A stretch of DNA of 62,514 nt, filler included, from Nanobdellota archaeon (GTDB lineage: Archaea > Nanobdellota > Nanobdellia > Woesearchaeales > CAZZGN01), in NCBI GenBank assembly GCA_051819665.1. It is 6 parts of 6 records of this genome, joined end to end, with 100 filler letters (N's around TTAATTAATTAA, not from the genome) between each part and the next. Parts side by side here need not be neighbours in the genome. Positions count along the whole stretch, not along the records: positions 23,957 to 34,577 come from JBNJDG010000035.1; 5 more parts are not named here. The stretch is one strand, 5' to 3'. Positions 15,343 to 46,710 of this stretch are shown piece by piece. The notes beneath the pieces were generated by a model. That model was not told the origin of the DNA. It saw nothing but the letters and a program-made list of their open reading frames with translations, and ran no database searches. Each line of letters opens with the position of its first letter. Positions within the stretch are counted from its first letter, which is position 1. Made by a program: the position numbers and the translations under genes.

Positions 15343-15343
15343 T

Positions 15344-16225: not shown

Positions 16226-16427
16226 ATTCTGTACCCCATTTGATCCTGTCCCATGTCCTTTCATGGAAATAATATACCAGTAGTTTCACGAACACTTCCA
16301 CTACAGCAAGTGAGACCGAAAGCTCTATGCTGCCAGTGAAAATATAAACAAGCACCATCGTGGTCAACGTTGCCAGGGCTCTCCATGAAAGACTCTTAGC
16401 TAAACTCCTCTTTTTTGATTCTTTCAT
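16212..16427 (-). CDS. DUF2061-like small membrane protein
   Basis: [13 protein letters not shown]...YYFHERTW pattern; commonly found with cys genes. Confidence 0.85.
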
Positions 16428-23956: not shown

Positions 23957-25457
23957 GGAGGAGCTTGCGGGTAAGCTTTCCAAGCCGGATTTTATCAGGA
24001 AGATAGAGAATAACGGCCCTTACCTTAATTTCTTCATAGACAGCTCTTATATGGCAAAGGCTGTCTTTGATTCTCTCAACAAGAGCTATGATAAGAAAGA
24101 AGACAGGATCATGGTGGAATACTGCCAGGTGAATACTCACAAGGCTTTCCATGTGGGCCATCTCAGAGGAACTTTGCTGGGATCAGCATTAGTAAATCTC
24201 CTGAGGTATTATGGTTTCGAGGTGGTCTCTGCTAATTATCAGGGAGATATAGGCGCTCATGTCGCAAAGTCGATATGGTATCTTAATAAGTTTGAACCTG
24301 AGATGCCCGAAAAGGAGAAGGGAAAATGGCTCGGAAGGATATATCAGAAAGCCAATAAGGAACTGGAAGACAATCCCGGATATAAGGAAGAGGTCTCGGC
24401 TACTTTACAGAAGCTTGAGAATGGAGACCTCGATAGTATATGGAAGAAGACCAGGCAATGGTGCCTTGATGATTTCGAGAAGATCTATTCAAGACTTGGA
24501 GTGGAATTCGATGAGTATTTCTTTGAGAGTCAGGTCGAGAAGGAAGGCAAGAGGATAGTCAGGGAACTTCGTGACAAGGGCATTGCAGAGGAGAGCGAGG
24601 GTGCTCTGATAATCAACCTTGAGGAATATGGGTTGGGAAATTTCCTGCTCCTGAAGTCTGATGGTACTGCTCTCTACTCCACAAAAGACCTTGCTCTTGC
24701 GAAGTGGAAATTCGAGAAGTATGATATAGACCGCTCGCTTTATGTTGTCGGCTCTGAACAGAAGATGTATTTCCAGCAGATATTCAGGACGCTTGAGAAG
24801 ATGGGCTTTAAGGAAGCTGAGAAATGCAGTCATATACCTTTCGAGCTAGTTAGCCTGGAGGGGGGAAAGATATCTTCGAGAGAAGGTGAGCTCATACTTG
24901 CTGATGAACTCCTTGATGAGCTTGAGGAGCATTCCTATGAGGAGGTTAAGAGAAGGCATCCTGACTGGAAAGAGGAAGACAGGAAAGAGACTGCCAGGAG
25001 TCTTGCTCTTGCAGGAATTAAGTTCGGCATGCTATCACAGGACAATAAGAGATCGATGGTCTTTAACATAAAGGACTCGCTTGATTTTGAGGGCGAGACT
25101 GGGCCTTACATACAGTATGCCCATGCCAGGATATGCAGTATTTTGAGGAAATCAGATACAGAATATGGAGAGGCGGATGTATCTTATCTTAAGAATGAGG
25201 ACGAGAAGAACCTTGTATCTCTCCTCGGTGGCTTTGATGAGGCTTTAAAACAGTCGGTCAAGGATTACAGGCTCATGCCCCTGTGCAGGTATCTGCTCGA
25301 TCTCTCCCAGGCACTGAACGAGTATTATCATAAGCATAATATCCTTAAGGAGGAGGAAGGGAAGAAGAAAGCAAGGCTTTTCCTTGTAGATAATGTGAGG
25401 AAGGTCATAGCCAGGGGTCTTTCCATCTTAGGTATGGATGCACCAGAGAGGATGTAA
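23957..25457 (+). CDS. argS: arginyl-tRNA synthetase (5'-truncated)
   Basis: HVGH (HIGH), KSDGTALY, KISSR, FEGETGPYIQYAHARICSI, APERM; frame open back to the gap (GPYLNF). Confidence 0.96.
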
Positions 25458-25460
25458 ACT

Positions 25461-26033
25461 TTAACATTCGAGCTTATTGCCTTCGCCTGTTGTGCAGGCT
25501 ATCTTGTTGTTGGAGATAATATATGAATCTGTCTCAGGATAATCAACCTTATGCTTGCAACATATGTTTTCTGCAGCGTTTCCGGCGAGTGCATCGAATC
25601 TTTTTTTCAGTGAGTCCAGTTCCTTCTGTAACTGTTCTTTCTCTCTCTCGACCTCTACCTTTTCCTGGTTACATTTATTCTCGCTGTTCTCGAGCTTGTT
25701 TTCCAGTTCCTGTATCTTCCGGTCCTTCTCGCTCTTGAGTTCGTTCTTCAGCTGTGAGCATTGATAGCTTTCATTGGTGAGCTCTTCAATCCTTTCTTTC
25801 TGTCTCTCACTTGTCTTTTCACAGGATCTTTTCCTTATAAGGGCAGAATTAAGTTTCGTCTCTTTCTCCTCAACTTTTGAGAGGATCTCGTCGAGGGTCA
25901 TATCATAACTGCCGAACTCTTTCCTGATCTCATAGCCTTTCAGGGCAGGTTTCATCATGAAGAGGATTATAACAAAGAGTACGGCTACTATGGTTATGGT
26001 CAGCAGGACCTGGTGTTTGTGACTTAATTCCAT
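25461..26033 (-). CDS. membrane-anchored coiled-coil protein with Cys-rich C-terminus
   Basis: N-terminal TM helix, heptad repeats, NICC...C...C. Confidence 0.75.
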   Translation of the reverse strand: MELSHKHQVLLTITIVAVLFVIILFMMKPALKGYEIRKEFGSYDMTLDEILSKVEEKETKLNSALIRKRSCEKTSERQKERIEELTNESYQCSQLKNELKSEKDRKIQELENKLENSENKCNQEKVEVEREKEQLQKELDSLKKRFDALAGNAAENICCKHKVDYPETDSYIISNNKIACTTGEGNKLEC

Positions 26034-26039
26034 CTTTCC

Positions 26040-26630
26040 TCAATAACCCAGTTCCTCATCCACGAGGATCACATGGGCTTCCTTGTCCTTTATCCATTCC
26101 AGTATGCCTATAGACCTGCAGATCCTCTCAGGTGATGAGCAATCAGTGCATTCTCCTCTTTCCTTACAGGGGACCTTCTTGTCAAGTCTTTTGGCATTAG
26201 GGGGAGCAGCAACATCTTTCGCTCTCCTTATCCCGTCTTCCAGAGTACCTTCGGTGATCTTGTTACTTCCTATCAGGAAGATAAGTTTCTTTGGGCCGTA
26301 TATGGTTGCGGCGACCCTGTTCCCTCTTCCGTCTATGTTGATGATCCGGCCATCAGCAAGGAGAGAATTGACGCTGGTAAGGAAAGTATCTGCATAGAAC
26401 GCTTTCTTCATTGCCTCAGGATCTTTCTTCCTGTCAAGGACTCTTATGTCCTCTCTCTTCCGTAGCCCTTCAAAGACTCCTGTCTCTTCAAGCGAAGCGC
26501 TGCCTCCCCAGGCGACTGTCTCTCCCTCTTTCACAAGGTCGAGGATAAGTTCTTTCGCTTCCTCTTTGGTATCGCAATGATGCGGGATGAAATTCCTCTT
26601 TTTCAGATTGTTTATAAGTTCTTCTGTCAT
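26040..26630 (-). CDS. LUD-domain (LutC/YkgG-like) lactate utilization protein
   Basis: WGGS, NIDGRGNRVAA..YGP, PC..GECTDCSSPERIC, EELGY; start codon uncertain. Confidence 0.88.
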   Translation of the reverse strand: MTEELINNLKKRNFIPHHCDTKEEAKELILDLVKEGETVAWGGSASLEETGVFEGLRKREDIRVLDRKKDPEAMKKAFYADTFLTSVNSLLADGRIINIDGRGNRVAATIYGPKKLIFLIGSNKITEGTLEDGIRRAKDVAAPPNAKRLDKKVPCKERGECTDCSSPERICRSIGILEWIKDKEAHVILVDEELGY

Positions 26631-26665
26631 AATATTACTTGTAGATATCATCTGGGTAATAAATC

Positions 26666-27544
26666 TTATGGCTCTGTAATAGAACCAGAATACTCTTGTT
26701 TAATCTTGTTCATCTCTCCCTCGAGTTCTTCATAGGCCCCTTTCATCTCTTTCTCTATCTTTTCTGTCTCTTTTTTTATCTTCTCCAGGTCTTCGTTGTG
26801 CTGATTGATCTCCGTTTCCAGGGAACTAAGGTATAACTGCCTGAATCTCTTGTAAGATTCCCTTATCCTGTCCCAGAACCTTTTTATGACTCTGAAAACC
26901 TTCTTTTCTTCCTCCTCTCCAAGCCTTCTCGTGAAATGTGTTGATATTTCTTCCATGCCCAGGTCTTTCTTCGCTTTCTCATAAGCTTCCTTGAGTTTAT
27001 AGTAAATGGTTGAGACTGCCTTTTCTGATTTCTTCATTATGGTTTTTGGAGGGATCCCTTTTTCCACAGCCTTATCGGCTTTTTCCCAGAATAGATTGAA
27101 TGTGGCTTCAATCATGGGCCATGTGTGGGAGACTGATTTCCAGAATTCTTTTATGACTTCATTCTGTTGTTCTATCTTGAAATTCATGAACTCCTCTTTG
27201 CTTGTAAAGTATTTCTTGTCAGGATTCATCTCTTTGTATAGTACCTCGTGTCCCTCCTCATCGTATATTATTTCTGCGTTCCTGAACCTGTCCTCTTTCT
27301 CTTCAAAAGAGCTGACCTGAAGAGTCTTCAATATCTCGGAATAGCTCATATGGCTCTTCCTGATACTCTGGTTGGGGATGGAGGCAGAGATCTCTTTTGC
27401 GATCTGTCTTCTTTCTTCTGTGGAGGCTGATTCAAGATCCTTTATGTTGTTCTTCTCAAGGATCCGTTTGAGTATATTGATACCTTCGTGTCCGTACAAT
27501 CTCTCCATCAATGAACTCAGTTCAGTATACATGTATTCAATCAT
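26666..27544 (-). CDS. hypothetical helical protein
   Basis: 292-aa ORF, native codon usage, TATA box upstream. Confidence 0.7.
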   Translation of the reverse strand: MIEYMYTELSSLMERLYGHEGINILKRILEKNNIKDLESASTEERRQIAKEISASIPNQSIRKSHMSYSEILKTLQVSSFEEKEDRFRNAEIIYDEEGHEVLYKEMNPDKKYFTSKEEFMNFKIEQQNEVIKEFWKSVSHTWPMIEATFNLFWEKADKAVEKGIPPKTIMKKSEKAVSTIYYKLKEAYEKAKKDLGMEEISTHFTRRLGEEEEKKVFRVIKRFWDRIRESYKRFRQLYLSSLETEINQHNEDLEKIKKETEKIEKEMKGAYEELEGEMNKIKQEYSGSITEP

Positions 27545-27634
27545 ATATGTTTTAATTTATAATGTTTTCGGAATTATTAACAAACAGAAAGAATAGAAAA
27601 AGCTCCCCCCACATATGAGGGAGGATAAGTTTAT

Positions 27635-28336
27635 TTACCTTCCAGTGTTTGGTCCTTCAGGTCCACTTTGTTCACCTGAAGGGCTCTCATTACTGTCAAC
27701 AGCCCCGCCGGTAGAGGGTTCTTCTCCGGAAGAGATGTTGTCTGGTCCAGGTCTGTCAGTTTCCCTGGTGTCTCTTCCTGGACCGGGCTTTCCTTTATCT
27801 TCGGCATTACCTCTGCTTTTAGAGCCCTGCATATGTTCCTGTACCCTAGCTCTTGCGTTCTCTCTCACTCTACCGAGCATCCTGCCGGTACTGTTCTCGA
27901 GTTCCGAGGCTCTTTCAGGGTTTCTCTGTCTCACTCTCTCCAGGGCTCTTTCTCTTCCTCTTGCGCTGCTGTTCATTGCCCTCTCTATACCTTTTTTTGC
28001 CTGCTCGGGCACTTTGTCATAGACCTCACCGAGTACAGCCAGGTGGTTTGAGGTCTTATTGGCCATCTCTTCATCGTCCTCAGACCTGTTAAGAGCTTTC
28101 TGGTAGCCGTTCATGGCTTTCTCCATACCTCTCTGATTGTTCTCTCTCGCCATTGCTACCATTTCGGCAGCTCTTTCGTCAGAGACTTTCTCGGCTGCTC
28201 TGAAATTATCAAAGAAACTGTCCATGAAGTAGAACGGACTGTCGGGGGTTGTTCCCGGATCTGGCAGTTCCTCTACAGCAAGGGCAGGCATTGCAGCGAG
28301 CATAATCCCTGCTATCAATATTCCTATTAATCTCAT
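27635..28336 (-). CDS. secreted DUF5667-like protein with disordered C-terminus
   Basis: Signal peptide, LPDPGTTPDSPFYF, KVPEQAKKGIERA. Confidence 0.78.
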   Translation of the reverse strand: MRLIGILIAGIMLAAMPALAVEELPDPGTTPDSPFYFMDSFFDNFRAAEKVSDERAAEMVAMARENNQRGMEKAMNGYQKALNRSEDDEEMANKTSNHLAVLGEVYDKVPEQAKKGIERAMNSSARGRERALERVRQRNPERASELENSTGRMLGRVRENARARVQEHMQGSKSRGNAEDKGKPGPGRDTRETDRPGPDNISSGEEPSTGGAVDSNESPSGEQSGPEGPNTGR

Positions 28337-28460
28337 TTTGACCCCTCCGCCTGTGTTCCAGGCTTTAGTATATAGAGATGGAACGATTTAAATACTTTTT
28401 CCGGAATTAGCGGAACAAGGTGGATCTTGAATAAGAAGCTATTCTACAGAACTTCATTCA

Positions 28461-28534
28461 TGACCCCAGCGGGATTCGAACCCGCACCAGCCGGTCCGAA
28501 GCCGGCCGCACTATCCGGATTATGCTATGGGGCC
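28461..28534 (-). tRNA. tRNA-Arg (anticodon UCG), no intron, CCA not encoded
   Basis: GGCCCCA/TGGGGTC acceptor stem; GCCGG-CTTCGGA-CCGGC anticodon arm; GCGGG-TTCGAAT-CCCGC T-arm; A20. Confidence 0.95.
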
Positions 28535-28598
28535 ATCTTGTCATAGGTGAATCTAAGTCATAAGCAGTGATTTATAATATTTACTAAAAAGAAAAAAA

Positions 28599-28703
28599 TC
28601 ATTTCTTAAAAGGGTCTTCTCCATAACCGACCCATATATATTCTCCGTTCTTCTCACTGGCCATCCTATTAAAAAGGTTGGCGAATCTCTTCAAGAGTTT
28701 CAT
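28599..28703 (-). CDS. small ORF (34 aa) downstream of alba
   Basis: MKLLKRFANLFNRMASEKNGEYIWVGYGEDPFKK; AGGTGA SD; poly-T terminator right after the stop. Confidence 0.55.
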   Translation of the reverse strand: MKLLKRFANLFNRMASEKNGEYIWVGYGEDPFKK

Positions 28704-28712
28704 CCTATCACC

Positions 28713-28997
28713 TTATTCTTTCTTCGTCAGTATGATTTCAATCGTCGAAACCCTTACTTCCTTTCCTTCTTTGTTCTCGAACTCTTCAGAATCGATCTTG
28801 ATATCCTTGATCCCTACTGTGCCGTCAAGGAACCTTTTTGAAGCGACCTCTGCGACATCTACTGCCCTGCTTATGAACTTGCCTCTTGCCTTGACCGTCA
28901 CTTCCTCAGCGTCCTTTGTAGTGAATTGCATCACTACACCGGTAACATAGTTCATAAAAGGCTTGTTACCGATAAAGATAGAATTGTCTCCTATCAT
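28713..28997 (-). CDS. albA: DNA/RNA-binding protein Alba
   Basis: IFIGNKPFMNYV, KARGKFISRAVDVAE, VSTIEI. Confidence 0.96.
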   Translation of the reverse strand: MIGDNSIFIGNKPFMNYVTGVVMQFTTKDAEEVTVKARGKFISRAVDVAEVASKRFLDGTVGIKDIKIDSEEFENKEGKEVRVSTIEIILTKKE

Positions 28998-29009
28998 TTG
29001 TGTTCCCCC

Positions 29010-29198
29010 CTAGTTCCTGGTTTTCACTAGTCTTGTTACGTAACCGGCGATAATGTTCCTTATTTTTCTTGAAGATACTTTAGTGTATTTATCGACCAGC
29101 GCCTTATTCTGTTCAAACTCCTTCTTGAATTCTGAAGGATGTTCTCTTAGCAAGTCATTACTGCATCTTTTTATAAGCATTGTTTTTATTCTTCCCAC
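29010..29198 (-). CDS. rps17e: 30S ribosomal protein eS17
   Basis: MGRIKT..IKR, FEQNK, RNIIAGYVTR. Confidence 0.94.
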   Translation of the reverse strand: MGRIKTMLIKRCSNDLLREHPSEFKKEFEQNKALVDKYTKVSSRKIRNIIAGYVTRLVKTRN

Positions 29199-29273
29199 TG
29201 TAAATCACTGGTCACAGGAACGCAATCTTCATTTATAAAGTTATCGGTTAAATCCTCTTCTCAGGGGTATCTT

Positions 29274-30125
29274 TTATTCATATGCTCTGACTCTGGCTTT
29301 GCTTATGTCTATCTCAGAAGGTATTGCACCTCTTATCTCAGCCACAGCTCCCGCAACCTTGTTCGCAAGACTGAGTTTATCATCTCTTTTATTCAGTAGA
29401 GCATATAAGAAGCCTGCTGTGAAAGCATCTCCACAACCAACAGTGTCTGCAATCTTCCTTTTCAGACCTCTCACTTTGGTCCTTTTCCAGCTATCTCCTT
29501 GTTTCTCGAGGAGCTCAGCACCTTTCTCCCCTTTCGTGATGATAATCTTCCTCAATGAGAAGTTCTTGAGATATCTGATCGGTTCGACATCGAAGATATC
29601 TCTAATCCTCTCTAACTCCTCATCGCTTATCTTCAGGATGTCTGCCCTTTTTAAAGATTCGAAGATCGTCAGCTCGTTCTCTCCTCCCCTTAAGTTCATA
29701 TCGTATATCTTGAGTCCGGGACTGTTGTCTATGAGCTTCTGTATCTCTTTCCGGTTCCTCCTCTGGGCCAGGCTGCCGTAATAGATGACATCAGAGTCCT
29801 TCACGAAACGGAGGCTCTTTTTCGTGGCCCTTATGTAATCATAAGCGACTTTATCCTTTATGTTGAATGTATGTTTTTTCCCCTTCATGCTGACCTTAAC
29901 TGCACCTGTCTCGACATTCCTCTTCTGGATTATATGGTTGATCTTCCTGTTCCTTACGAAATCGGTGATCTCCTTGCCCAGCTTGTCCTTGCCGACAGCT
30001 GTTATTATACCTGTATTCAGCCCCAGAAGCTTTCCCATTAATGCAACGTTCAGCGGGGCTCCGCCGATCCTCTTCTCTCTGCCGAATATATCGAATAAGG
30101 TCTCTCCTATGCATAGAATGTCCAT
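29274..30125 (-). CDS. PfkB-family carbohydrate kinase (probable fructokinase)
   Basis: CIGETLFD, GGAPLNVA, YGSLAQR, DMNLR, DTVGCGDAFTAG. Confidence 0.9.
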   Translation of the reverse strand: MDILCIGETLFDIFGREKRIGGAPLNVALMGKLLGLNTGIITAVGKDKLGKEITDFVRNRKINHIIQKRNVETGAVKVSMKGKKHTFNIKDKVAYDYIRATKKSLRFVKDSDVIYYGSLAQRRNRKEIQKLIDNSPGLKIYDMNLRGGENELTIFESLKRADILKISDEELERIRDIFDVEPIRYLKNFSLRKIIITKGEKGAELLEKQGDSWKRTKVRGLKRKIADTVGCGDAFTAGFLYALLNKRDDKLSLANKVAGAVAEIRGAIPSEIDISKARVRAYE

Positions 30126-30126
30126 T

Positions 30127-30627
30127 TCAATACCTCCTGTAATCTCCCGGTTCGATGTCCTTTATCTTCGCTTTCTCTTTCAGCGTATCTCCCAGATTTT
30201 CATTATAATCCTTCGGGGAATGGATTATATCCAGCTTCCCGCTCCAGATGTTCTTCTCTATCTTAGGATAAGTATCATCCTTGTCCTTTTTCTTTATCAT
30301 ATCAAGGGCTTCTTTCCTTATCTCCTCATACCCATACTGTGGGTTGTTTTTATATGTTTCCTTGTCCGGCAGTTCGTTTTTGCTGTAATCGCCTTTGTTT
30401 TCTATATCATAATCTATATTCTCACCCTGTTCAGTAGCAGCTTCTTCCTCAACCTCCTTCTCGAGAGGCTTCTCACTCTCTTTGCTCATCCATATCTTCG
30501 CACAGTCTGGTGTACAGAAATTAGCCTTGGTCACATTGCCTTCTTTCTTCTTGATGAACCTGAAATAAGTGTAATCTCCATCCCTTTTGATTTCTTTTCC
30601 GCAGTTTCTGCATATGATCGGTTTCAT
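30127..30627 (-). CDS. hypothetical protein with N-terminal CxxC...FCxxxC zinc finger
   Basis: CRNCGKEI...NFCTPDC; translationally coupled to the invertase gene. Confidence 0.7.
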   Translation of the reverse strand: MKPIICRNCGKEIKRDGDYTYFRFIKKKEGNVTKANFCTPDCAKIWMSKESEKPLEKEVEEEAATEQGENIDYDIENKGDYSKNELPDKETYKNNPQYGYEEIRKEALDMIKKKDKDDTYPKIEKNIWSGKLDIIHSPKDYNENLGDTLKEKAKIKDIEPGDYRRY

Positions 30628-31889
30628 CTGAAATTGAAAATGTTGAAGTCTTCTTTTATGCTCTTATAAGCAAGGATATAGGCTGAGGCAGACCATGCCT
30701 GTTCTTTCTTTCCCTTCGAATCGGCTGTCTGGCCGTGCATGTACTCGTTGAAATCCCAGTTGTTCTTCTCGAGGAGCTCAGCAAGCTTGTATAGTTCTTC
30801 TTCCGCTTTATTGGTATAGCCTATCTTATCGAGAGCGTATATCCAGAAACCTGCGATCATAGGCCAGAGACCTCCGTTGTGATATGTATGTGTCTGCTCT
30901 TTCTTCTCGTAGACGTATTCCCAGCCTCTCTCGTGCTTGTATACAGGCGGGTGAAGAGCCTTGATAGGATAAGGCTTATTGACCTTGTTCCTCAATGCAT
31001 GATTTATAATCATCCTTTTCTTCTTCTTGTTCGCTATATCTGTCACGATGGCCAGTATATTACCCAGGCTGTCGAACCTCCATTCCCAGTGTATCTTGAA
31101 GGGTTTTAGGTGCGACTGGTAGTAGCTGTATGTCTTCTCCTCGATGTTCTCCATGATCATGTATTCATCTTTGATATCCTTTATGTTGTCCTTGGTGAAC
31201 CAGAAGACCTGATTGATCCTCTTCTTCACTTTGGGCTTTCTGAGCCTGATCCATCTTATCCTTTTCCTGATCCTCTTCCTGATGTCCTCGTCCTTTGTCT
31301 TTTCGTATCCTCTCTCAAAGAGATATATGAGTGCTTTGAGGGCTTCGTAATAGAGACATTCATCATAAAGTACGTGGTAACTTCGGTTCATGACATCTGC
31401 CCAGTCGCCAGCTGTTGGAACTTCCATGAGGCCGCAGTTATTAGAGTCAAAAGCCTTGAAGAGCCTATAGAACCTCCTGTACCTGAGCATGTTCGTCTTG
31501 GAGAGGAAGGTCTTGTTTTTAGTCCTCTTATGCATGATAGCGCATGCGATGACGATCCAAAGGTTGGAATCCACAGAGGTTATTGATCCGAATCCTCCAT
31601 ATACTTTCTTCTTATTCTCTATCTCTACATAACTCGGCACTTGTCCGTGGTCTATCTGGTTACGGAGGAGGAAGAATATGCCTGTCTCAGCGGTCTCTAT
31701 AAGATCCTCATCACCTGTCAATATAGCACCAATGGAAGTTATGCAATGGTCCCTGGCCCAGACGGAATAATAATTCTCCTTTCTCTCGGTGCTTGCGGAA
31801 AAACCGTACTTAGATTGGTTCTTCCTGAGAACATCCACAGCTTTCCTGTATCCTTCCTCAATCTTTTCCTCTTTCTTATGGCGGCTCAT
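30624..31889 (-). CDS. GH100-like alkaline/neutral invertase
   Basis: NYYSVWARD, SVDSNLW, AGDWAD, RFDSLGNILA, YHNGGLWP, FNEYMHG, QAWSA. Confidence 0.82.
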   Translation of the reverse strand: MSRHKKEEKIEEGYRKAVDVLRKNQSKYGFSASTERKENYYSVWARDHCITSIGAILTGDEDLIETAETGIFFLLRNQIDHGQVPSYVEIENKKKVYGGFGSITSVDSNLWIVIACAIMHKRTKNKTFLSKTNMLRYRRFYRLFKAFDSNNCGLMEVPTAGDWADVMNRSYHVLYDECLYYEALKALIYLFERGYEKTKDEDIRKRIRKRIRWIRLRKPKVKKRINQVFWFTKDNIKDIKDEYMIMENIEEKTYSYYQSHLKPFKIHWEWRFDSLGNILAIVTDIANKKKKRMIINHALRNKVNKPYPIKALHPPVYKHERGWEYVYEKKEQTHTYHNGGLWPMIAGFWIYALDKIGYTNKAEEELYKLAELLEKNNWDFNEYMHGQTADSKGKKEQAWSASAYILAYKSIKEDFNIFNFR

Positions 31890-31952
31890 ATCATGTCCAT
31901 AATGTTCAGTGTTTTTATATTTTGCGACCCGAAAGAGTTATAAATAATTCAT

Positions 31953-33299
31953 ATGATGAATAGAATAATTATGGTAACCCAAAAAGAGAGGCATGAGGAT
32001 TTCAGGAAATCAGGAAGGAAACATATATTATTGATAACCAATCATGGCTGTCATTCAAGGGAGATCCATGTGACGACTGATACCGGAGGACAGAATTTCT
32101 ATGTTAATGATTTTGCCAAGGCCCTCCTCAAGCTGGGTTATAAGGTCACTATCCTCAACAGGGGTGGTTACAGGCATCCTGTTACAGGCAAGATGCACAA
32201 AGGGGTTTTCTATTATGATGAAACTTTCGGGAAGATGGGTGAGTACTGCAGGCTCCTTTACCTCGAGGACAGCATAAAATCCTTTGTCCCTAAAGAGAAA
32301 CTCAAGCTCAAACATCTCTCGGAGGAAGTTGATTTCTTCTTTGATAAAGCACATAAGCTCGGCATGAAGCTGGAAGATATTTTCTTCATATCCTCCCATT
32401 ACTGGGATGGTGGTATAGTGGGCACGTTGATAAACAGAAGGCTCGGCAGGAAAGTGCCTCATCTCTGGACACCCCATTCTCTTGGAAAGCTCAAGAGATA
32501 CAATTACAGGAACAAGCCGAAGTGGATAATAAGGAGGCTGAATTTCCCCACCAGGATAAGGAACGAGGAGAAGGTCCTTTCGGAAGTGGACGGTGTTGTC
32601 TCCACCTCGGGTAAGATAACGAACACTTTGGAGAAATATAACAACAAACCTCCCAGGTATTGGTTCCCTCCTGGTATAGATATGAAGGTCTTCAGGCCCA
32701 GGAAGAACTGTAATAAAGCTGTGAAACTGATAAATGAGTTTGCGGGCAGGCAGATATATGATAAGGGCAAGAAAGTCTTCCTTGAAGTGAGCAGGACAGC
32801 AAGACCTAAACAGAAAGACGTTGTGATGAAAGCCTTCTCGAAGGTGAAGGATAATGCTATACTTGCGATGACTATAGATAAGGAGACTAATACCTATGAT
32901 GAGATCATGGAACTTAAGAAGGAGCTGGATAGTGATAATATAATCCTCCTCGACCGTTTCCTTGAGCAGGATGAGATAGCCCAGCTTTTCTCCCTTGCTG
33001 ATGTTTATGTTACTGCTTCAGTTATGGAAGGCTGGGGCATGTCGGTCCAGCAGGCCGCTGCATCCCGTTGTGCTATTATCTCTTCAAAGTATGTGCCTTT
33101 TGTCAATGAGGTGCTCAAGGAAAAAGCCTTCGTGGTGGATAATAAGGTGAGCAGTTATGCTTCACAGATACAGGAACTGGCGGACAATCCTGAGAAAGCA
33201 GCTGAGAAAGCGGAAGAGATTTATGAGATCGCTAAAGGATATTCATGGGAAGCGCTCAGCAGGAGGCTTATAAAGGAGATGAGAAGATGTTTGTTCTAG
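31953..33299 (+). CDS. GT4 glycosyltransferase of the sucrose-phosphate / mannosylfructose-phosphate synthase type
   Basis: LLITNHG, DTGGQ, FVPKE, SSHYWDGG, TPHSLG, NFPTRIRNE, EGWGM. Confidence 0.82.
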   Translation: MMNRIIMVTQKERHEDFRKSGRKHILLITNHGCHSREIHVTTDTGGQNFYVNDFAKALLKLGYKVTILNRGGYRHPVTGKMHKGVFYYDETFGKMGEYCRLLYLEDSIKSFVPKEKLKLKHLSEEVDFFFDKAHKLGMKLEDIFFISSHYWDGGIVGTLINRRLGRKVPHLWTPHSLGKLKRYNYRNKPKWIIRRLNFPTRIRNEEKVLSEVDGVVSTSGKITNTLEKYNNKPPRYWFPPGIDMKVFRPRKNCNKAVKLINEFAGRQIYDKGKKVFLEVSRTARPKQKDVVMKAFSKVKDNAILAMTIDKETNTYDEIMELKKELDSDNIILLDRFLEQDEIAQLFSLADVYVTASVMEGWGMSVQQAAASRCAIISSKYVPFVNEVLKEKAFVVDNKVSSYASQIQELADNPEKAAEKAEEIYEIAKGYSWEALSRRLIKEMRRCLF

Positions 33300-34111
33300 C
33301 CACTGATCTTGACCGGACGCTTTTCCCCAACGGGCTCCAGGAATATGATGAAAGTATGAGCCTATTCTCGCAGGTAATAAAGAAGGAGAGACCTAAGTTG
33401 ATCTATGTCACGGGGAGGAATATAGAACAGGTTAAGGAAGGCATGAAAGAGTTCCATGCTCCTATGCCTGATCACCTTGTCCTTGAAGTCGGGACAAAGG
33501 TCTACAATAATGTTGACGGGAAATTTGTGGAGGATGAAGGCTGGATAGATACAATCAAGTCAGTCACAAGTAACTGGAATGTCAATACCTTCAGGCAGGA
33601 ACTTTCTGTTATAAAAAGCCTTAGGCTCCAGGAAGAGCATAATCAGAATCGCTTCAAGCTGAGCTATTATCTTGATGATCCTGATAATTCAGAAACGATA
33701 GTGAGAGAGGTAACGAGGATAATCAAATCAATATGTGAAGATGCCTGTATTGTTTATAGCGAGGACGAGACTCACGGAGTGGGTCTTCTGGATATACTCC
33801 CTAAGAGAGCCACCAAGGTTGAAGGCCTCGAATACCTTAGGAGAAAGCTCGGCTTCTCCATGGAAGATATTGTATATTCAGGTGATAGTGGGAATGATAT
33901 CCTTCCGCTGACTTATGGTTACAGGTCCATTCTCGTCAGGAATGCAAAGGAGGATGTGAGGAACACGGTGAGGAACATGATGCTCGAGAAGAATATACTT
34001 GACCGCCTTCACCTATGCAAAGGTTACGGCAGACTAAACGGTCATTATGTTTCGGGAATATTAGAGGGGCTCATCCATTTTGCCCTGATAGATGAAGACT
34101 ACATTCTTTGA
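33287..34111 (+). CDS. HAD-IIB sucrose-phosphatase-like (SPP/MFPP) phosphatase
   Basis: ATDLDRT, YVTGR, FKLSYY, LDILP..ATK, SGDSGND; true start ATG 33287 overlaps the GT4 gene. Confidence 0.88.
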   Translation: MFVLATDLDRTLFPNGLQEYDESMSLFSQVIKKERPKLIYVTGRNIEQVKEGMKEFHAPMPDHLVLEVGTKVYNNVDGKFVEDEGWIDTIKSVTSNWNVNTFRQELSVIKSLRLQEEHNQNRFKLSYYLDDPDNSETIVREVTRIIKSICEDACIVYSEDETHGVGLLDILPKRATKVEGLEYLRRKLGFSMEDIVYSGDSGNDILPLTYGYRSILVRNAKEDVRNTVRNMMLEKNILDRLHLCKGYGRLNGHYVSGILEGLIHFALIDEDYIL

Positions 34112-34577
34112 CGATCTTAGCCCCCAGCTTTGCTGTAAGGCCCTTGTCAAGCTCAGGATTTATTTCCACTAAATCTACCATCGTCAGATTGTGAAGTTCC
34201 CTGAACCTCTGCAGTAAGAAGAGGAGCTCTCTCGAGGTAAGGCCACCTGATTCTGGATAACCGGTTCCCGGAGCGAAAGCAGGATCCACGATGTCTATGT
34301 CTATCGAGACATACGTTGAACTCCATCTCCTTGCTATCGACATGACCGCTTCAGAGACTTCCCTGAGGCCCTCGAAACTGATCTCTTTCATCGTGAAATA
34401 CCTTATCCCGTTTTTCTCGAGAAAATCCAGCTCGTCCTTATGCCAGTTCCTTATGCCTAAGATGATTATGTTCTCCGGCTTCAGGTCCTTATTGTTCACA
34501 AGGCCTCTGATGAGGTCCTCATGGCTCGGAGGCATGAAATCACTTTCACAGTCTGGATGGGCATCGAGCATTATCAA
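34071..34577 (-). CDS. arginase/agmatinase (ureohydrolase) family protein, 5'-truncated
   Basis: DAHPD, SIDIDIVDPAFAPGTG..ESGG, DLVEINP. Confidence 0.9.
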   Translation of the reverse strand: MIMLDAHPDCESDFMPPSHEDLIRGLVNNKDLKPENIIILGIRNWHKDELDFLEKNGIRYFTMKEISFEGLREVSEAVMSIARRWSSTYVSIDIDIVDPAFAPGTGYPESGGLTSRELLFLLQRFRELHNLTMVDLVEINPELDKGLTAKLGAKIVKECSLHLSGQNG

Positions 34578-38675: not shown

Positions 38676-41600
38676 TTATATCTTTGATATGAATCCTCTT
38701 CTAGGTTCGAAGATATCCCCTGACCTCTTAAGTTTTTCTATTGATTCCTCTACTTTCTCTTCAGTCATGCCTTTTTCCGAAGCGGCATTTATTATCTCCT
38801 CAATCGGGATAGTCTTCCCGAATTTATCCTCTAACTCGTTTATTATCTCCCTGACATTGACTATCTTGCTCCTCTCGGTAGTAGTTATTCCGGTAGTTAT
38901 ACGGTCAATGTCTATCTCACCGGTTTCGGGATCGAAGCCTACCTGTGCGAGAGAATAATGAAGCAGTTCCACTGCCCTTTTTGCATCCAGCTTCGAGACC
39001 TTGTTTGAAAGCCTGAGCTTTGCCGAGGATTCTGCTATCCTCACTAATGCCTCAAGCTGTCTTGCAGAGATAGGGACGCTCTTGACCTCATTTTCGGATT
39101 GTCCCTTCTGTCTCATCTTGATATAATATCTCTTGATCTCCTCAATGGCGTTATTGGTGAGCTGGGGAGTGATCTTCTGCCTCGCATAGGCGATGTATTT
39201 TCTTATGAGCTCGGTGCTTATCTCCCCTCCCTCTCCTGTCGGATTCTTATGGAGATTGAGTATGAAAGAGGCCATCTTATCGTCCTTATCCTGATCAGGC
39301 AGGTCTCTTACTGGGAATATGAGGTCGAAACGGTTTATTAGTGTTGGTGGCAGGTCGATCTGTTTTGAGATCACCTCGTAAGGGTCGAAGCGTCCGAATT
39401 TAGGGTTTGCTGCAGCAAGGACAGTTGTCTGGGACCTTAGTGTTGCCTGGATATTGGCCTTTGAGATTGTTATCGTGTTGTGGAGCACTGCCCCCTGGCT
39501 GATGAAAGTCTGGTTAGGGAACATAGTGACATCATATACATAAGGGACAGTTTCAGTGACCCTATCCTTCTCCTTGATTCCCATGAGACTGAGATCCGAT
39601 TCAAGGAACCTGCTTATCTGTTCAAGTTCCTCTTCTATAGGCTCAAGCTTATTTTTCATTTTCTGTTCGAGGATGCCTTTGAACATCTCTGTGTTCCCCT
39701 GTTCTTCATGGTTATACACAGTGGAAGGTGAACATCCGGCGGTCTCCGCTATGTCTTTAACGTGTATGTTTGCGTTTCTTCTCAGTCCTCTGAAGGAACC
39801 TGTCTGTCTTATCTTATTTATCCTTTCTCTGGCCCGCAGAACATGTTTCATAACTGTTCTCCTGTTAGAATTATGGCCTCTTTTTATGACATTAGTGAAA
39901 TATCCATCATCTATCTTCAAAGACTTCAATATGTTCTTCACCCTGAGGACCATGTCTATAGGCACAGTGTCCCTGTAATTAGCTTTATTATAACTCCTGC
40001 CTGTTAGTCCCTTTACTTTTTCGAGCCTTTCATCTTTCCTGTCGATGACTGATTCGCTGAATGTTTTTTTTCCTTCCGGGCTGGTTATGATTGTTTTGAA
40101 ATATCTCTTATCTCCCCTTTCTTCTGTTCTTATGATGCTTGTTATGCCAAGATCCAGGAGAAGGTCCTGATAATCCTCGGCAAGCTTTCTTGAAGCTGTC
40201 GTGAAACCGAAATCGCTATTATCATAATAACCGTCCCCCCTGAATGCGGCGCAGAGGAACTCAGTTTTTATCTCTTTGGTCTCCTTCATGATAACCTGAG
40301 GGGCCCTCTTCAGAGGAGCTTTACAAAGGAGCTCGGGGAAATTCTTCCTGAAAAATTCATAAAGAGGCTTTGAGGGGCACCTGATAGTGTAAAGGTCAAG
40401 TGTGGCTCTCTTCCTTGATTCTTTCTTATGTATGTTGATGTTTATGCTTGTTTCAAACACCCCTTCGAACAATGACTTCACTTCCTCTTTGATCTCATCC
40501 GAGGTGGTGCTTATACCTATCTCAGCATATCTATTGGAGGGATTGTTATGACTATGGCCTTCAGATATGAAATATCCGAGGAGTTTTGATAAGCCTCTGG
40601 ATAAGTATTCAGGGAATGTTATCGGTTTGTTGTTAGGCTTCTTTGGGATGACCTTTTCCAGTGTTTGTGATTCACCTGTAATGCCTGATCTTTTCGGACA
40701 AGGCACGAGTTCGTCCCCTTTTATGGAGTCAGCGGGCACTTCGACAAATTTTCCGTTCCTGTATACCCACATTGGGTGTTCCGGGGTGACTTTTATCGTC
40801 CTGCCGTTCTGAAAAGTGAACCTGACAAAGTATTCAGGAGGTGTATGTCTGCTTATCCTGTCAATATTAGTTTCATATACCTGGTTGAAATCAGTTGTAA
40901 CCATGGAGATATCTTTCGGGAAAGAGAATTCACATCTTATACCTTCAACTTTCTTCTCCTCTTTCATAATTTTTTCAACGAGATTTCCCATCCTGACTCT
41001 GGTTCCGTCTGAGAGCCTTATTTCAGTCTCCGGGTGATAACTCTGCCCTTCCAGCGCTTCGTGCATGGCGCTCCTGTCCTCATCGGTCATCTTGTCAAGC
41101 TCGTCTATAGCGCACATTCCCTTATTAGCAAGCACCAAAGCTCCTGCTTCCAGGCTCCAGCCTTTCAGGAACTCATCCTTGACTACAGAGGCGGTAAGAC
41201 CTGCACCGGATGCTCCCTTACCCGAGACGAATCTGGCTTTAGGGGCCACTTTGGACATCCTTTTAAGCAATTGTGACTTACCCGAACCAGGGTCCCCGAT
41301 AAGGAGGACGTGCATGTCTCCTCTTGTCACTCCTCCGTCTGTCCTTTCTTTCTTTATTCCCCCCACCATCTGGTAGAGGAGGGCCTCTTTTATCTTATCA
41401 TAGCCGTAGACAGAGGGAGCTACAGATTCCACAAGTTTCTTGTTGATATCATTATTCTCAGCAAGATCGAGGATCTCGTCTTCCTCTTCCTGGGTGATCT
41501 CTATCTCTCCGAAATCCTCACTGGAGGAATCCACATAGTTAGCTTCAATGAGGAGGTCATATCTTGTTGATGTACCTCCGGTGTTAAGGGTCACAGGCAC

Positions 41601-42302
41601 TTCCTTCACAAAGCCGTTGAGGATGATCTTGGTTCCGGGGTTGGTTTTCTTGTCAGAGAGGGGGCTCACAAGGTCAGCTTTCAGGAAGACGTTCATCCTC
41701 TTCGGTTGTTCTCCTCCTTCCAGTCCGTCAGGGGATTCTTCAAGGACTATGCCCTGGGCATCCACAAGCTCCTTTGTCATGAGCATGAACTTGCCTTTCC
41801 TGCCGCATCCGCATCTTGTTGGTTCCTTGAACTTGGAGTCAAGCTGAAGGACGGAGATGACATTCCCACAACTGGGGCATTCGAATTTTGCATTCGTGAC
41901 CTGGGGCCTTACATCGGTCTTCTGTCTTACAATACCCTCTATGTGCAGGAATTTCCCGATATGCTCGCTCCTGATGTTCCTTATCATCAGGTGCTGGTTA
42001 GAAGGAAGGTTGTAGAACCTCACATATAATTTTTTTATATCCTTTGCGAAGTCAAAATCCGTCACGGCCACTTCGCATGCCTTTAAGACATCCTCCGGGT
42101 TTTCCAGCAGCTCTTCAGAAAGGTCCGGATCGAATTTTATTAAACTTGAGAAATCAATTGAGATATGTTTCAGGCCCTTCCTTACGGTTTCCAGGAGCTC
42201 ACCATAATAGTTATCTTCCACGAATTGTTTGAATCTTCTTATGTGCTCCGTGGTCTCCATCTGTTTTTCTTCTTCCTGTTGTGCGGATTTTGCCTGGTCC
42301 AT
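38676..42302 (-). CDS. mcm: MCM replicative helicase containing one intein
   Basis: CPSC/CGC Zn finger, GDPGSGKSQ, LEAGALVLA, IDELDKM, AAANPKFGRF, RFDLIF, SARQLE. Confidence 0.97.
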   Translation of the reverse strand: MDQAKSAQQEEEKQMETTEHIRRFKQFVEDNYYGELLETVRKGLKHISIDFSSLIKFDPDLSEELLENPEDVLKACEVAVTDFDFAKDIKKLYVRFYNLPSNQHLMIRNIRSEHIGKFLHIEGIVRQKTDVRPQVTNAKFECPSCGNVISVLQLDSKFKEPTRCGCGRKGKFMLMTKELVDAQGIVLEESPDGLEGGEQPKRMNVFLKADLVSPLSDKKTNPGTKIILNGFVKEVPVTLNTGGTSTRYDLLIEANYVDSSSEDFGEIEITQEEEDEILDLAENNDINKKLVESVAPSVYGYDKIKEALLYQMVGGIKKERTDGGVTRGDMHVLLIGDPGSGKSQLLKRMSKVAPKARFVSGKGASGAGLTASVVKDEFLKGWSLEAGALVLANKGMCAIDELDKMTDEDRSAMHEALEGQSYHPETEIRLSDGTRVRMGNLVEKIMKEEKKVEGIRCEFSFPKDISMVTTDFNQVYETNIDRISRHTPPEYFVRFTFQNGRTIKVTPEHPMWVYRNGKFVEVPADSIKGDELVPCPKRSGITGESQTLEKVIPKKPNNKPITFPEYLSRGLSKLLGYFISEGHSHNNPSNRYAEIGISTTSDEIKEEVKSLFEGVFETSININIHKKESRKRATLDLYTIRCPSKPLYEFFRKNFPELLCKAPLKRAPQVIMKETKEIKTEFLCAAFRGDGYYDNSDFGFTTASRKLAEDYQDLLLDLGITSIIRTEERGDKRYFKTIITSPEGKKTFSESVIDRKDERLEKVKGLTGRSYNKANYRDTVPIDMVLRVKNILKSLKIDDGYFTNVIKRGHNSNRRTVMKHVLRARERINKIRQTGSFRGLRRNANIHVKDIAETAGCSPSTVYNHEEQGNTEMFKGILEQKMKNKLEPIEEELEQISRFLESDLSLMGIKEKDRVTETVPYVYDVTMFPNQTFISQGAVLHNTITISKANIQATLRSQTTVLAAANPKFGRFDPYEVISKQIDLPPTLINRFDLIFPVRDLPDQDKDDKMASFILNLHKNPTGEGGEISTELIRKYIAYARQKITPQLTNNAIEEIKRYYIKMRQKGQSENEVKSVPISARQLEALVRIAESSAKLRLSNKVSKLDAKRAVELLHYSLAQVGFDPETGEIDIDRITTGITTTERSKIVNVREIINELEDKFGKTIPIEEIINAASEKGMTEEKVEESIEKLKRSGDIFEPRRGFISKI
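39477..41042 (-). mobile_element. intein (522 aa) with LAGLIDADG homing endonuclease in MCM
   Basis: Inserted at HEALEGQ|TITISK; begins SYHPET, block B VTPEHP, LLGYFISEG and AAFRGDG, ends VYDVT...VLHN followed by Thr. Confidence 0.93.
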
Positions 42303-44422: not shown

Positions 44423-45019
44423 TTATGGGAATACTGTAACTCTCTGTTCAGAGATTATATCAGGCATTGCCGTCGTAACAACTGCCGGATTACCTATCTT
44501 AGGAACCATCCTGATCTCGATGGTCTCGTCCTCAGTGACGTTCCTCTTGGTCTGGAAGCACAGCTTTCCTATATCTCCTCTCTGTAGGTAACCTTCCTCA
44601 AACTGGGAACCGGTTATAAGGTAATCCACTGCAAAACCTTCCTTCACGGAACTGTTGTCATATTGGGGCACATTATTCTCACAATCAGCTGTGGAGTTGT
44701 AAGTGTAATCGTAATTCGCATCCTTCAGAGAGACCTCCATCAACATCTCCTCGAACTTGACAGGATCTGAACCTGGTGCAAGCTTCAGTTTGGAGAAGAA
44801 AGTCTTCACTGAGCTGTCTGTAGAACCATCTTCAGCATAAACCAGCATCGGCTTTATGCTCGTCGATACCTGCTGTTGTGATCTCTCACCTGTAAGCAAA
44901 GCCTTGTTCTGCAAGGACGATGCGGTCTGGATAAGAACACCTGCAGCTATTGCCGCAACAAGGATCATCGCTATAAAGATTATCAGGGTCCCTATACCCA
45001 TTTCTGCTTTTTTTCTCAT
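44423..45019 (-). CDS. arlB: archaellin
   Basis: Class III signal [33 protein letters not shown]. Confidence 0.95.
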   Translation of the reverse strand: MRKKAEMGIGTLIIFIAMILVAAIAAGVLIQTASSLQNKALLTGERSQQQVSTSIKPMLVYAEDGSTDSSVKTFFSKLKLAPGSDPVKFEEMLMEVSLKDANYDYTYNSTADCENNVPQYDNSSVKEGFAVDYLITGSQFEEGYLQRGDIGKLCFQTKRNVTEDETIEIRMVPKIGNPAVVTTAMPDIISEQRVTVFP

Positions 45020-45130
45020 GTTTAACCACCCTCTATGTGTGTTTATTGAAAGTTTCTGAGAAACAGCCTTATATAAATCTTTGGATAATTATGTGGATTT
45101 ATAAAGATAAATAAAGATAATAAAAAGAAT

Positions 45131-45736
45131 TCAAGGGTAAATGGTTACCCTCTTTTCAGACAGTATATCAGGCATTGCTGTCTCTATAGGCGCCTGATTA
45201 CCTATCTTCGGGATAAGCCTTATAGCGAAGTTCTCGTCCTCAGTGACGTTCCTCTTGGTCTGGAAGCACAACTTCGATATATCCCCTCTCTGCAGATAAC
45301 CGTCAGAGAAGCTGGAACCCTTGATCAGGTAATCAATTGCAAATCCTTCATGGACAGTCTCGTTGAAGACAGGCACATTATTCTCACAGTCCGCCGTACC
45401 ATTAAAGTTATAATCATACGACGCATTATTCAGTGAGACCTCTACAAGCATCTCATCAAACTTCACCGGATTGGAACCCGGGGCAAGTTTCATCTTCATA
45501 TAAAACGTCTTTACGTTGTTCCCCGTCGAACCATCTTCAGCATAGAGAAGCATCGGCTTAAGACTCGTCGATACCTGCTGTTGTGATCTCTCGCCTGTAA
45601 GCAAAGCCTTGTTCTGCAAGGACGATGCGGTCTGGATAAGAACCCCTGCTGCTATTGCCGCAACAAGAATCATGGCAATAAAGATAATCAAAGTCCCGAT
45701 TCCCATCTCTGCTTTTTTCTTGACTTTATTTTTCAT
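45131..45736 (-). CDS. arlB: archaellin
   Basis: Same N-terminus; GAGGTGA SD before ATG 45736. Confidence 0.95.
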
Positions 45737-45771
45737 TCGAATCACCTCTAAAGGGCAAGACCCTTATCCTT

Positions 45772-46347
45772 TTAAGGATAAATAGTCACCCTTTTTTCTG
45801 ACATTATGTCGGGCATTGCTGTGTGGATAGGAGCCTGACTTCCTATTTTTGGGATTAATGTGATTTCTACATTCTCGTCTTCTGTGACATTCCTCGATGT
45901 GCTGAAACAAAGGTTCACCACATCCCCTCTCTGCAGGTAGCCTTCCGAAAGTCCTGAACCTTCAATAAGGTAATCTATAGCAAATCCCTCACTATAGGCA
46001 GGCGGAGCAGTACAGTTAGCTGTTGAATTGAAAGTAAGGTCATCAGATCTGTCCTTGAGGGAGACCTCCACAAGCATCTCGCCGAACTTCACTGGATCTG
46101 AGCCAGGAGCAAGCTTCACCTTCAGGTAAAAAGTATCAACCTGAGCATTAGTCCCGTTCTCCGCATAAAGCACCATCGGCCTCAAACTTGTAGATATCTG
46201 GTCCTGCGATCTCTTACCTGTAAGCAGGGCCTTGTTCTGCAAGGACGATGCAGTCTGGATAAGAACACCTGCTGCTATCGCCGCAACAAGGATCATCGCT
46301 ATGAAGATGATCAAAGTCCCGATTCCCATTTCAGCTTTCTTTTTCAT
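45772..46347 (-). CDS. arlB: archaellin
   Basis: Same N-terminus; own TATA promoter upstream. Confidence 0.95.
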
Positions 46348-46710
46348 GATAACACCTCTTGAATCTTAATGTGATAATCCTACTATTAGTATTCATTTTT
46401 GTATACTGGGATATGGTTATTTATAAATTTTTTCAAAATACGCAACTAATTCGGCTAAACCGAAAAACTCATAGAATGAAAAATAGATTTCATTTTCAGA
46501 AAAAAAGATAAAAAAACAATAAAAAGCATAAAAAAAGCTTAAAATAATCTATTTAATCTTAAAAAATCAAATAACAACAAAATAATTAAAATAAATGAAT
46601 AAAAAATAAATAGAAATCAAAAATAATAATAAAAAATAAAAGAAAAGAACAAAATAAAACAATTTACACTTCTTTAGGATTATAAAAATAAAAATATCTC
46701 TCTAAGAGTA

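Follow-up and report, generated by a model that had tools for sequence, protein, structure and literature searches.

Does a DPANN archaeon make its own sugar osmolyte, and by which enzyme would it do so? This question is raised by a five-gene cluster in a Nanobdellota archaeon of the order Woesearchaeales (GCA_051819665.1, hereafter G000), whose genome of 1.12 Mb is 96% complete with 4.5% contamination. The cluster was analyzed within a window of 62,514 nucleotides, the whole stretch of DNA under study, in which six contigs are joined by N spacers. It lies on contig C35 (window 23957-34577; 10.6 kb) and encodes a family 4 glycosyltransferase (GT4), a HAD phosphatase, a GH100-like hydrolase, a small protein with a putative zinc finger, and a PfkB sugar kinase. 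Our analysis favors, with a probability of roughly 0.55, the view that a non-reducing fructoside, sucrose or a related sugar, is both produced and recycled by this archaeon as an osmolyte, by means of a third, undescribed family of hexosyl-fructose-phosphate synthases that it shares with the candidate phyla radiation (CPR) and anaerobic bacteria and whose large sister clade is paired with GalT or DUF4922 genes. Together with gene pairs of the sucrose-phosphate synthase (SPS) clade in related genomes, this view would have sucrose-type synthesis enter the order at least twice.

An earlier note on this DNA had described two divergent operons sharing a gap of about 60 bp. All five open reading frames (ORFs) were found on the strands and in the layout given there, with a gap of 63 bp:

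29274-30125, minus strand: PfkB sugar kinase, predicted fructokinase, with GGAPLNVA and DTVGCGDAF motifs (PF00294)
30127-30627, minus strand: orphan ORF of 166 aa, with an N-terminal CxxC...CxxxC putative Zn finger and an acidic tail
30624-31889, minus strand: hydrolase of (alpha/alpha)6 fold, GH100-like, from a clade resident in DPANN (PF12899; D165, E382)
31890-31952, no strand: divergent gap of 63 bp with two putative archaeal TATA-like boxes, read by eye
31953-33299, plus strand: GT4 glycosyltransferase (clade A), predicted NDP-hexose:fructose-6-phosphate transferase, with DTGGQ, SHYWD, and TPHSLG motifs (PF00534)
33287-34111, plus strand: sucrose-phosphatase-type HAD-IIB enzyme with DLDRT and GDSGND motifs, sharing 13 nt with the end of the GT4 gene

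In the proposed cycle, the GT4 would join glucose from UDP-glucose to fructose-6-phosphate (F6P) under salt stress, giving sucrose-6F-phosphate, from which the HAD phosphatase would remove the phosphate to release sucrose. The hydrolase would split sucrose into glucose and fructose, and the PfkB kinase would return fructose to F6P, bringing the hexoses back to hexose phosphates. That such a make-and-recycle osmolyte cycle has sucrose as its product stands at about an even chance, ahead of mannosylfructose, and an osmotic role of the product is held with moderate confidence. Sucrose is favored because the grouping of the phosphatase, the supply of UDP-glucose, and the distribution of the hydrolase all lean toward it.

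The GT4 carries the DTGGQ, SHYWD, and TPHSLG motifs first noticed in it, scores 60.5 bits on PF00534, above the curated cut-off, and is a single GT-B unit of 448 aa whose structure model has a pLDDT (predicted local distance difference test) of 93.5. Sucrose synthase, which bears extra N-terminal SSN domains according to PMC11046441, was considered and rejected as its identity, given this single unit and the absence of any TIGR02470 or PF00862 match at E<=0.001. Nor does it resemble MshA on that family's own features, with 77 bits on TIGR03449 (cut-off 462.5) and Q47 at the position of the MshA Met. Instead, the GT4 has 33 full-length relatives at 43-56% identity, with which it forms clade A (34 proteins); the few named ones are from Patescibacteria, Moranbacteria, and Lokiarchaeota. 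A scan of GTDB confirmed at least 582 of 602 pattern matches, and the best 80 of these, kept for clade and locus counts, comprise 8 members of clade A and 72 of a sister clade B. The eight carry the labels Saccharibacteria, Nanoarchaeia, Atribacterota (two), Chloroflexota, Sulfurovum, Aerophobus, and Moraniibacteriota, and clade B is mostly from Planctomycetota, Chloroflexota, Acidimicrobiia, and Spirochaetota.

Two trees, of 74 and 39 rows, join clades A and B, with some long forms, into one clade (starred branch value 100) on a long branch, outside both the SPS clade (starred 98-99) and a group resembling MfpsA, the mannosylfructose-phosphate synthase; starred branches near long rows call for caution because all trees were quick LG+G4 reconstructions without bootstrap. 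The label of the MfpsA-like group rests on protein P0159, which we take to be MfpsA-like from its motifs: a cluster look-up for P0159 returned no name, the NCBIfam search of the GT4 matched no MfpsA model, plasmid searches gave only unnamed glycosyltransferases, and a look-up of homologue P0031 gave generic GT4 names only. The approximately unbiased (AU) test rejects neither sistership of A plus B (p 0.31 with SPS, 0.53 with the MfpsA-like group). The phylogeny proposed earlier as a check thus leaves the GT4 in neither clade, with MshA and sucrose synthase set aside on the profile and sequence features above. Its lineage has a signature of its own, with an invariant E278, MEG(W/F)G replacing YEPFG, and a TNHGCH motif; identity to SPS-clade enzymes is 22-26%. 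From these sequence comparisons, the GT4 is best described as a member of a third, unnamed lineage present in CPR, DPANN, and anaerobic bacteria.

What such an enzyme would join can be approached through its active site. The residue roles given for TeSPS, an assayed SPS, in PMC7264703 (catalytic His and Glu, fructose-binding Gln, and basic residues) were mapped through alignment, with an inferred numbering offset of 3, and place Gln51, Arg105, His158, Arg178, Arg249, and Glu331 at Q47, K114, H175, R201, R281, and E359 of the GT4. The catalytic pair, the Gln, and three of the four basic residues are kept; Q47, H175, R201, and R281 are invariant in the 34 clade-A proteins, and K114 and E359 nearly so. 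The top PDB matches of the family profile are TeSPS (106 bits), H. orenii SPS (86), and MshA (81), and in the fold search of the model MshA (Z 35.2) ties with TeSPS (Z 34.8). The F6P ligands of H. orenii SPS, which we take to be K96, Y128, S152, K157, and R180, map to conserved positions of the GT4 family. The conserved His, Glu, Gln, and basic residues give strong support to F6P as the predicted acceptor, and glucose, predicted to come from UDP-glucose, is proposed as the donor with moderate confidence. The same fold search also matched a Leishmania major sucrose-phosphate synthase-like protein (PDB 8VRF/8UAG, Z 27.9).

The phosphatase offers the best sequence argument for a sucrose-phosphate substrate, which it would share with the partners of SPS. 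It scores 161 bits on the S6PP family PF05116 (cut-off 20.3) and is above cut-off on TIGR01484; it misses the plant and cyanobacterial equivalog TIGR01485 (117 against 183.65 bits), as does the HAD beside the SPS-clade GT4 of genome G041 (109 bits). Its top PDB match is the sucrose-phosphate phosphatase (SPP) of Synechocystis (E 1.4e-16), the next reaching 9.6e-8. In a 37-row tree its clade (starred 99) also contains the HADs of G041 and G152, those partnered with clade-A GT4s, and two that come from clade-B loci; all 11 HADs whose context is MfpsA-like, class-C, or a flavobacterial fusion lie elsewhere. An Acidithiobacillus sps-GH100-pfkB cluster has a stand-alone HAD with which the phosphatase of the window shares 35-36% identity, as compared with 21% for a Paracoccus class-C partner.

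The hydrolase scores 83.7 bits on PF12899 (Glyco_hydro_100; cut-off 23.6), and its model (pLDDT 93.6) matches GH100 invertases at Z 40-43, with a root-mean-square deviation (rmsd) of 2.7-2.8 over about 387 aligned residues, other (alpha/alpha)6 families reaching Z<=35. D165 and E382 align with the catalytic D188 and E414 of InvA (an offset of 1 being inferred) and are both invariant in 52 homologues; at the InvA Arg430 position, read by eye, it has Lys394, and the family majority has Arg. It has 682 relatives at E<=1e-25; among the 120 listed, DPANN accounts for the named ones with identities over about 50%, the closest named homologue (72%) is labeled Ca. Woesearchaeota, and many carry the label 'amylo-alpha-1,6-glucosidase'. 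In a tree of 50 rows, the protein is placed within a set of DPANN sequences. We predict from sequence and modeled fold that it is a GH100-type fructoside hydrolase of a DPANN-resident clade. The PfkB kinase scores 106 bits on PF00294, above cut-off, carries the anion-hole motif DTVGCGDAF, and reaches 70 bits on NF006957 (cut-off 450); kinases from fructoside clusters share 30-34% identity with it, as against 25% for the other PfkB of G000. The Zn-finger ORF between them, counted at first as part of the disaccharide cluster, is an orphan that does not bear out this link: among 52 candidates of similar length, the forms that were searched, no homologue appeared at E<=0.01, and a DUF7576 match is below cut-off. 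Its finger is presumably TRASH-like.

How regularly these genes travel together bears on a further explanation, namely that the GT4 and HAD make some other sugar phosphate or solute (from another donor or acceptor, or a trisaccharide), that the two arms are neighbors by chance with a hydrolase serving glycogen or scavenged oligosaccharides, or both. Among the 401 genomes of the order, 33 have a match to the hydrolase; besides G000, 11 match at 46-70% identity, and around these 11 close relatives the fetched stretch contains neither a clade-A GT4 nor an SPP-type HAD; one lies beside glycogen genes. The full five-gene set occurs in G000 alone among the 401, and the idea of a conserved five-gene operon, which a synteny search was meant to check, had to be given up. 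Together with the many amylo-glucosidase labels, the long branch, and the novel donor-loop residues of the GT4, these counts speak for such an explanation. On the other side, PfkB adjoins the hydrolase in two of the 11 relatives (G175 and G083), the hydrolase fold is nearer GH100 (Z 42.7) than the amylo-1,6-glucosidase 7vma (Z 33.0), and clade-A GT4s recur with a HAD and a GH100-like gene of another subclade, as a HAD-GH fusion (L178), as remnants (L179-L181 and L009), and as a divergent copy (L006). These recurrences imply that synthase, phosphatase, and hydrolase were united more than once, and we regard another product or a chance neighborhood as improbable.

The fructoside cycle also draws on the wider context of the clade-A genes. 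A HAD comes after the clade-A GT4 in five of eight GTDB loci and four of eight metagenome loci (L177 repeats L003; L180 and L181 are near copies); in four of the other seven, the contig breaks off within the GT4 or shortly after it. The HAD of the window has a match at E<=1e-20 in 10 of the 401 genomes; of the nine besides G000, three (G030, G041, and G152) encode it immediately downstream of an SPS-clade GT4, and in six it adjoins a GH100-like gene, the fetched stretch containing no GT4. One further HAD, on its own, came from a sample of 351 genomes of the phylum (G469). In make-up the cluster is a mosaic: a GT4-HAD module circulating in CPR, DPANN, and anaerobic bacteria has been joined to a hydrolase of a DPANN-resident clade.

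Several loci in this set deserve separate mention. The HAD of a contig labeled Saccharibacteria (L003 5754-6581) is 89% identical to the lone HAD of the archaeal contig G469:C113 (L258 1501-2325), which reflects either recent transfer between CPR and DPANN or a mis-binned contig. At L009 (6998-10323), a 496-aa ORF resembling a transposase interrupts the clade-A GT4 of Ca. Aerophobus, and a hydrolase remnant lies downstream. The pairs of GH100-like gene and HAD lacking a nearby glycosyltransferase are at L104-L110 (G281, G330, G312, G107, G242, and G089, the last with two copies). A recurring DPANN cluster at L154-L157 (G098, G137, G215, and G140) combines a 379-aa GT4, a shorter GH100-like hydrolase, and a third member that we take to be PIG-L-like, with SIS, ROK-like, and other sugar genes nearby.

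The sugar supply of the cell bears on whether the donor is glucose or mannose. G000 encodes UDP-glucose pyrophosphorylase (UDPGP, 387 bits) beside glycogen synthase and GalT, as well as glycogen phosphorylase, a GH57 enzyme, a bifunctional PGI/PMI (above cut-off), a ROK kinase, and PGM/PMM, so UDP-glucose and F6P could be supplied from glycogen or glucose. At G000:C62 (L162), a GT3-type glycogen synthase, GalT, and a PF01704-type UDPGP share one operon. No ManC cupin domain was found in G000.

A set of observations nevertheless weighs against the sucrose reading. The GT4 reaches just 77 bits on the SPS model TIGR02472 (cut-off 576), for which SPS-clade enzymes of the same order attain 431-445 bits; its best BLAST match among outside references is the MfpsA-like P0159 (28%, 116 bits), SPS-clade proteins matching at only 58-88 bits; HYWD and PHSLG are common to it and the MfpsA-like group and absent from classical SPS; and Pro332, Arg253, and Glu339 of TeSPS are replaced by G360, P285, and Q367. 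The wider GH100-like family adjoins P0159-type GT4s in 23 of 66 loci, a HAD being present in 41, and L248 and L250 hold all four functions, while the one canonical SPS cluster compared has a canonical GH100 only 21% identical to the hydrolase. A nucleotidyltransferase beside PGM/PMM best matches mannose-1-phosphate guanylyltransferase (173 bits, cut-off 440), which makes a supply of GDP-mannose possible.

Much of this would suit a cycle in which the product is mannosylfructose, made from GDP-mannose by MfpsA/MfppA-like enzymes, with the hydrolase acting as an alpha-mannosidase. PGI/PMI would serve such a route as well, the tree joining A plus B to the MfpsA-like group is not rejected by the AU test, and one clade-B protein, P0051, bears the source label 'mannosylfructose-phosphate synthase'. 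Yet the MfpsA-like group does not include the GT4, whose long-branch clade (starred 100) has a distinct E278 and MEG(W/F)G signature, the HAD groups with SPS partners, and the hydrolase clade has no synthase nearby in the other close relatives inspected. Clade B, moreover, is often found at loci that also encode an MfpsA-like or class-C GT4 (class-C-type match in 20 of 72 loci; clade B in 5 of 66 P0159-type loci), suggesting a different function, and the identity of P0159 with MfpsA is itself presumed. The observation that HYWD and TPHSLG look more like MfpsA than SPS was correct as a likeness to the MfpsA-like group and is not evidence for MfpsA: the motifs do not fix the donor sugar, because TeSPS has NYWL, neither HYAD nor HYWD. 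The attempt to call the donor from these motifs was dropped on the same ground, the GT4 being in neither clade. Mannosylfructose ranks second, as a less likely product than sucrose.

The sister clade raises the question of direction. A GalT-like or DUF4922 gene, sometimes fused, is present in 58 of 72 clade-B loci (L011-L082), alongside HAD (37), ABC permeases (21), LacI (13), GH32 (8), and PfkB (8). This setting possibly represents an undescribed reversible or phosphorolytic fructoside route and offers a functional lead for DUF4922. It also speaks for a catabolic explanation of the whole cluster, in which the GT4 would run mainly in reverse, as TreT and sucrose synthase can, turning sucrose or sucrose-phosphate from host or prey into NDP-glucose and F6P. 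The clade-A locus L010, with GalT, PfkB, and GT4 and no HAD, fits this explanation, as do the six order genomes with a HAD and GH100-like pair and no GT4 in the fetched stretch. The cluster in G000, however, has neither GalT nor DUF4922 (no DUF4922 was found in the genome, and its GalT is elsewhere, on C62), no SBP_bac_1 was found in this 96%-complete genome, translational coupling of GT4 to the phosphatase would pull the reaction toward synthesis, and the adjacent invertase would make a reverse route redundant. A catabolic role appears distinctly improbable beside the synthetic cycle. At L012, L015, L024, L039, and L042, the clade-B GT4 stands between proteins of about 1,100 aa and an MFS transporter, beside long GT4 proteins; one of the ~1,100-aa neighbors, when scanned, had no Pfam match, and L012 contains a giant cupin-GT4-NTP-transferase fusion.

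G000 is not the sole archaeal case, given the SPS-clade pairs in G030, G041, and G152. The GT4 family profile matches five of the 401 genomes: G000, G148 (a truncated clade-A gene), and these three. An SPS-clade GT4 with an SPP-type HAD sits among archaeal genes at G041:C32 (L102 8003-10163), G152:C84 (L101 8764-11141), and G030:C59 (L103). Two of the three GT4s score the 431-445 bits on TIGR02472, below its cut-off, the G030 copy has an internal stop, and no PF12899 match was found in the three genomes. These pairs are cleaner candidates for archaeal sucrose synthesis than the GT4 of the window.

The physiology of G000 fits a cell using organic solutes in a salt-out manner: it encodes a betaine-type BCCT transporter (628 bits), and its proteome is not acidic (median isoelectric point 6.7 over 913 ORFs). 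Trehalose-phosphate synthase and OpuAC were not found in the genome. PMC11606122 leaves open how DPANN cells tolerate salt when their proteome is not acidic. Five sequencing runs contain part of the stretch, and two salt-lake metatranscriptomes from one study (X1 and X2) contain 57-66% of its words. On C35, each of the five genes is covered by their contigs, which fill 29 and 27 of 30 bins and mostly match at >=99% identity, although this cover consists of assembled contigs from a single study, possibly the genome's own source, and indicates presence without level, strand, or salt response, which lessens its weight for the osmolyte reading. None of the RNA contigs listed for X1 and X2 lies over the divergent gap, a hole that proves nothing. 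Since an archaellum contig used as a control varies in depth from <1 to ~1,200 in the same runs, the cover is unlike flat DNA carry-over, and the five genes appear to be transcribed in the salt lake.

The cluster belongs to its archaeal host. C35 also encodes ArgRS, tRNA-Arg(TCG) at 28460-28535, Alba, and eS17, so the earlier argument against contamination holds for this contig. GC is flat (0.43-0.44 along the stretch), and in codon use the five genes score between the 27th and 89th percentile of the genome. Bin contamination and a very recent transfer were ruled out on these grounds. Spacing is tight, with a 4-nt overlap between hydrolase and Zn-finger ORF, a 1-nt gap between that ORF and PfkB, and the 13-nt GT4/HAD overlap. 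Read by eye, the divergent gap contains the TATA-like boxes TTATAAAT at 31938-31945 (plus strand) and TATAAAAA at 31919-31912 (minus strand), each preceded by a purine-rich run resembling a B recognition element; scans for sigma-70 promoters (12 against 9.6) and terminators (6 against 4.3) were at chance level. The plus-strand box is 7 nt upstream of the first GT4 ATG and 25 nt upstream of Met7. Because of this short distance and a database protein of 442 aa, matching the Met7 start, the true start is most likely Met7 at 31971. Opposite control of the two arms from this one divergent promoter is a weak suggestion.

Elsewhere in the window, four archaellin-like and archaellum assembly genes were recognized by eye at 44423-52343 (minus strand), with archaellin RNA depths of 200-1,200 in X1 and X2. 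Three ORFs at 12987-16264 (minus strand) read by eye as cysD-cysN-cysC sulfate activation, unusual in a reduced DPANN genome, and a 1,208-aa MCM-like ORF at 38676-42302 (minus strand) has an apparent intein insertion, again by eye. Outside the window, G000:C6 (L166 5344-8052) encodes a 902-aa YvcK/CofD, nucleotidyltransferase, and HAD fusion beside GlmS.

Sucrose synthesis is usually ascribed to plants, cyanobacteria, and certain bacteria. No archaeal pathway for it was found described in the available parts of the open-access full-text literature, including Woesearchaeota papers and a review, and the word 'sucrose' is absent from the main text, as available, of PMC8421398 and PMC11337218, whose supplements may list such genes. 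Within that literature, the statement that no characterized archaeal example is known stands for synthesis and not for breakdown, GH100 in Woesearchaeota being already in print as a sign of sucrose degradation (PMC11606122). If the fructoside cycle is real, archaea would make sucrose-type sugars in a way not found described in the literature searched. The cluster offers four soluble enzymes that could be assayed in E. coli, and a function for the GT4 would extend to a lineage that has no name of its own, its members (34 clade-A proteins, and 72 clade-B loci among the best 80 of at least 582 GTDB matches) being labeled in databases simply as glycosyltransferases. Of the original proposal of a compatible-solute cluster for fructoside synthesis and breakdown in DPANN, the GT4/HAD and GH100-like/PfkB pairs persist, probably serving an osmolyte, and the MfpsA reading, the conserved unit, and the Zn-finger link do not.

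Compared with known systems, the cluster unites familiar functions in an unfamiliar form. The Agrobacterium MfpsA/MfppA pathway for mannosylfructose, reportedly described by Torres and Salerno in 2007, likewise pairs a GT4 with a HAD in an operon, and its presumed MfpsA-like group has HYWD and PHSLG in common with the GT4 of the window; the latter nonetheless belongs to a separate clade, is 28% identical to the presumed orthologue P0159, and has another donor-loop motif, and the HAD is of another subfamily. Mannosucrose is presented as an osmolyte in PMC2918589.

In Synechococcus PCC 7002 the sucrose cluster is spsA-sppA-frkA-amsA, as given in PMC11046441. With cyanobacterial and proteobacterial clusters of sps, spp, invertase (or amylosucrase), and fructokinase, the window cluster shares the same four predicted functions, an SPP-type HAD, and a GH100 fold with both catalytic acids, and its PfkB is 32.5% identical to the kinase of the Acidithiobacillus plasmid locus L158. 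In contrast, its synthase is outside the SPS clade (22-26%), its hydrolase is a distant GH100-like protein (21%), its arms are divergent, and its host is a DPANN archaeon. The GT-B fold of the GT4 matches TeSPS (6KIH) at Z 34.8 (rmsd 4.3, 382 aligned) and H. orenii SPS (2R60) at Z 31.5 (rmsd 5.2, 411 aligned). Relative to TeSPS it keeps equivalents of H158, E331, Q51, R178, and R249, with R105 as Lys, and differs by P332 to Gly, R253 to Pro, and E339 to Gln, and by the lineage-specific E278 and TNHGCH. Finally, the best structural matches of the hydrolase are the GH100 invertases InvA, InvB, and CINV1 (5GOP, 5Z73, and 6TTJ), whose NY...RD, YHNGG.WP, and Q.W segments it keeps; at 20-21% identity to these enzymes, it represents a clade resident in DPANN, to which the C-terminal domain of HAD-GH fusions from flavobacteria is related.

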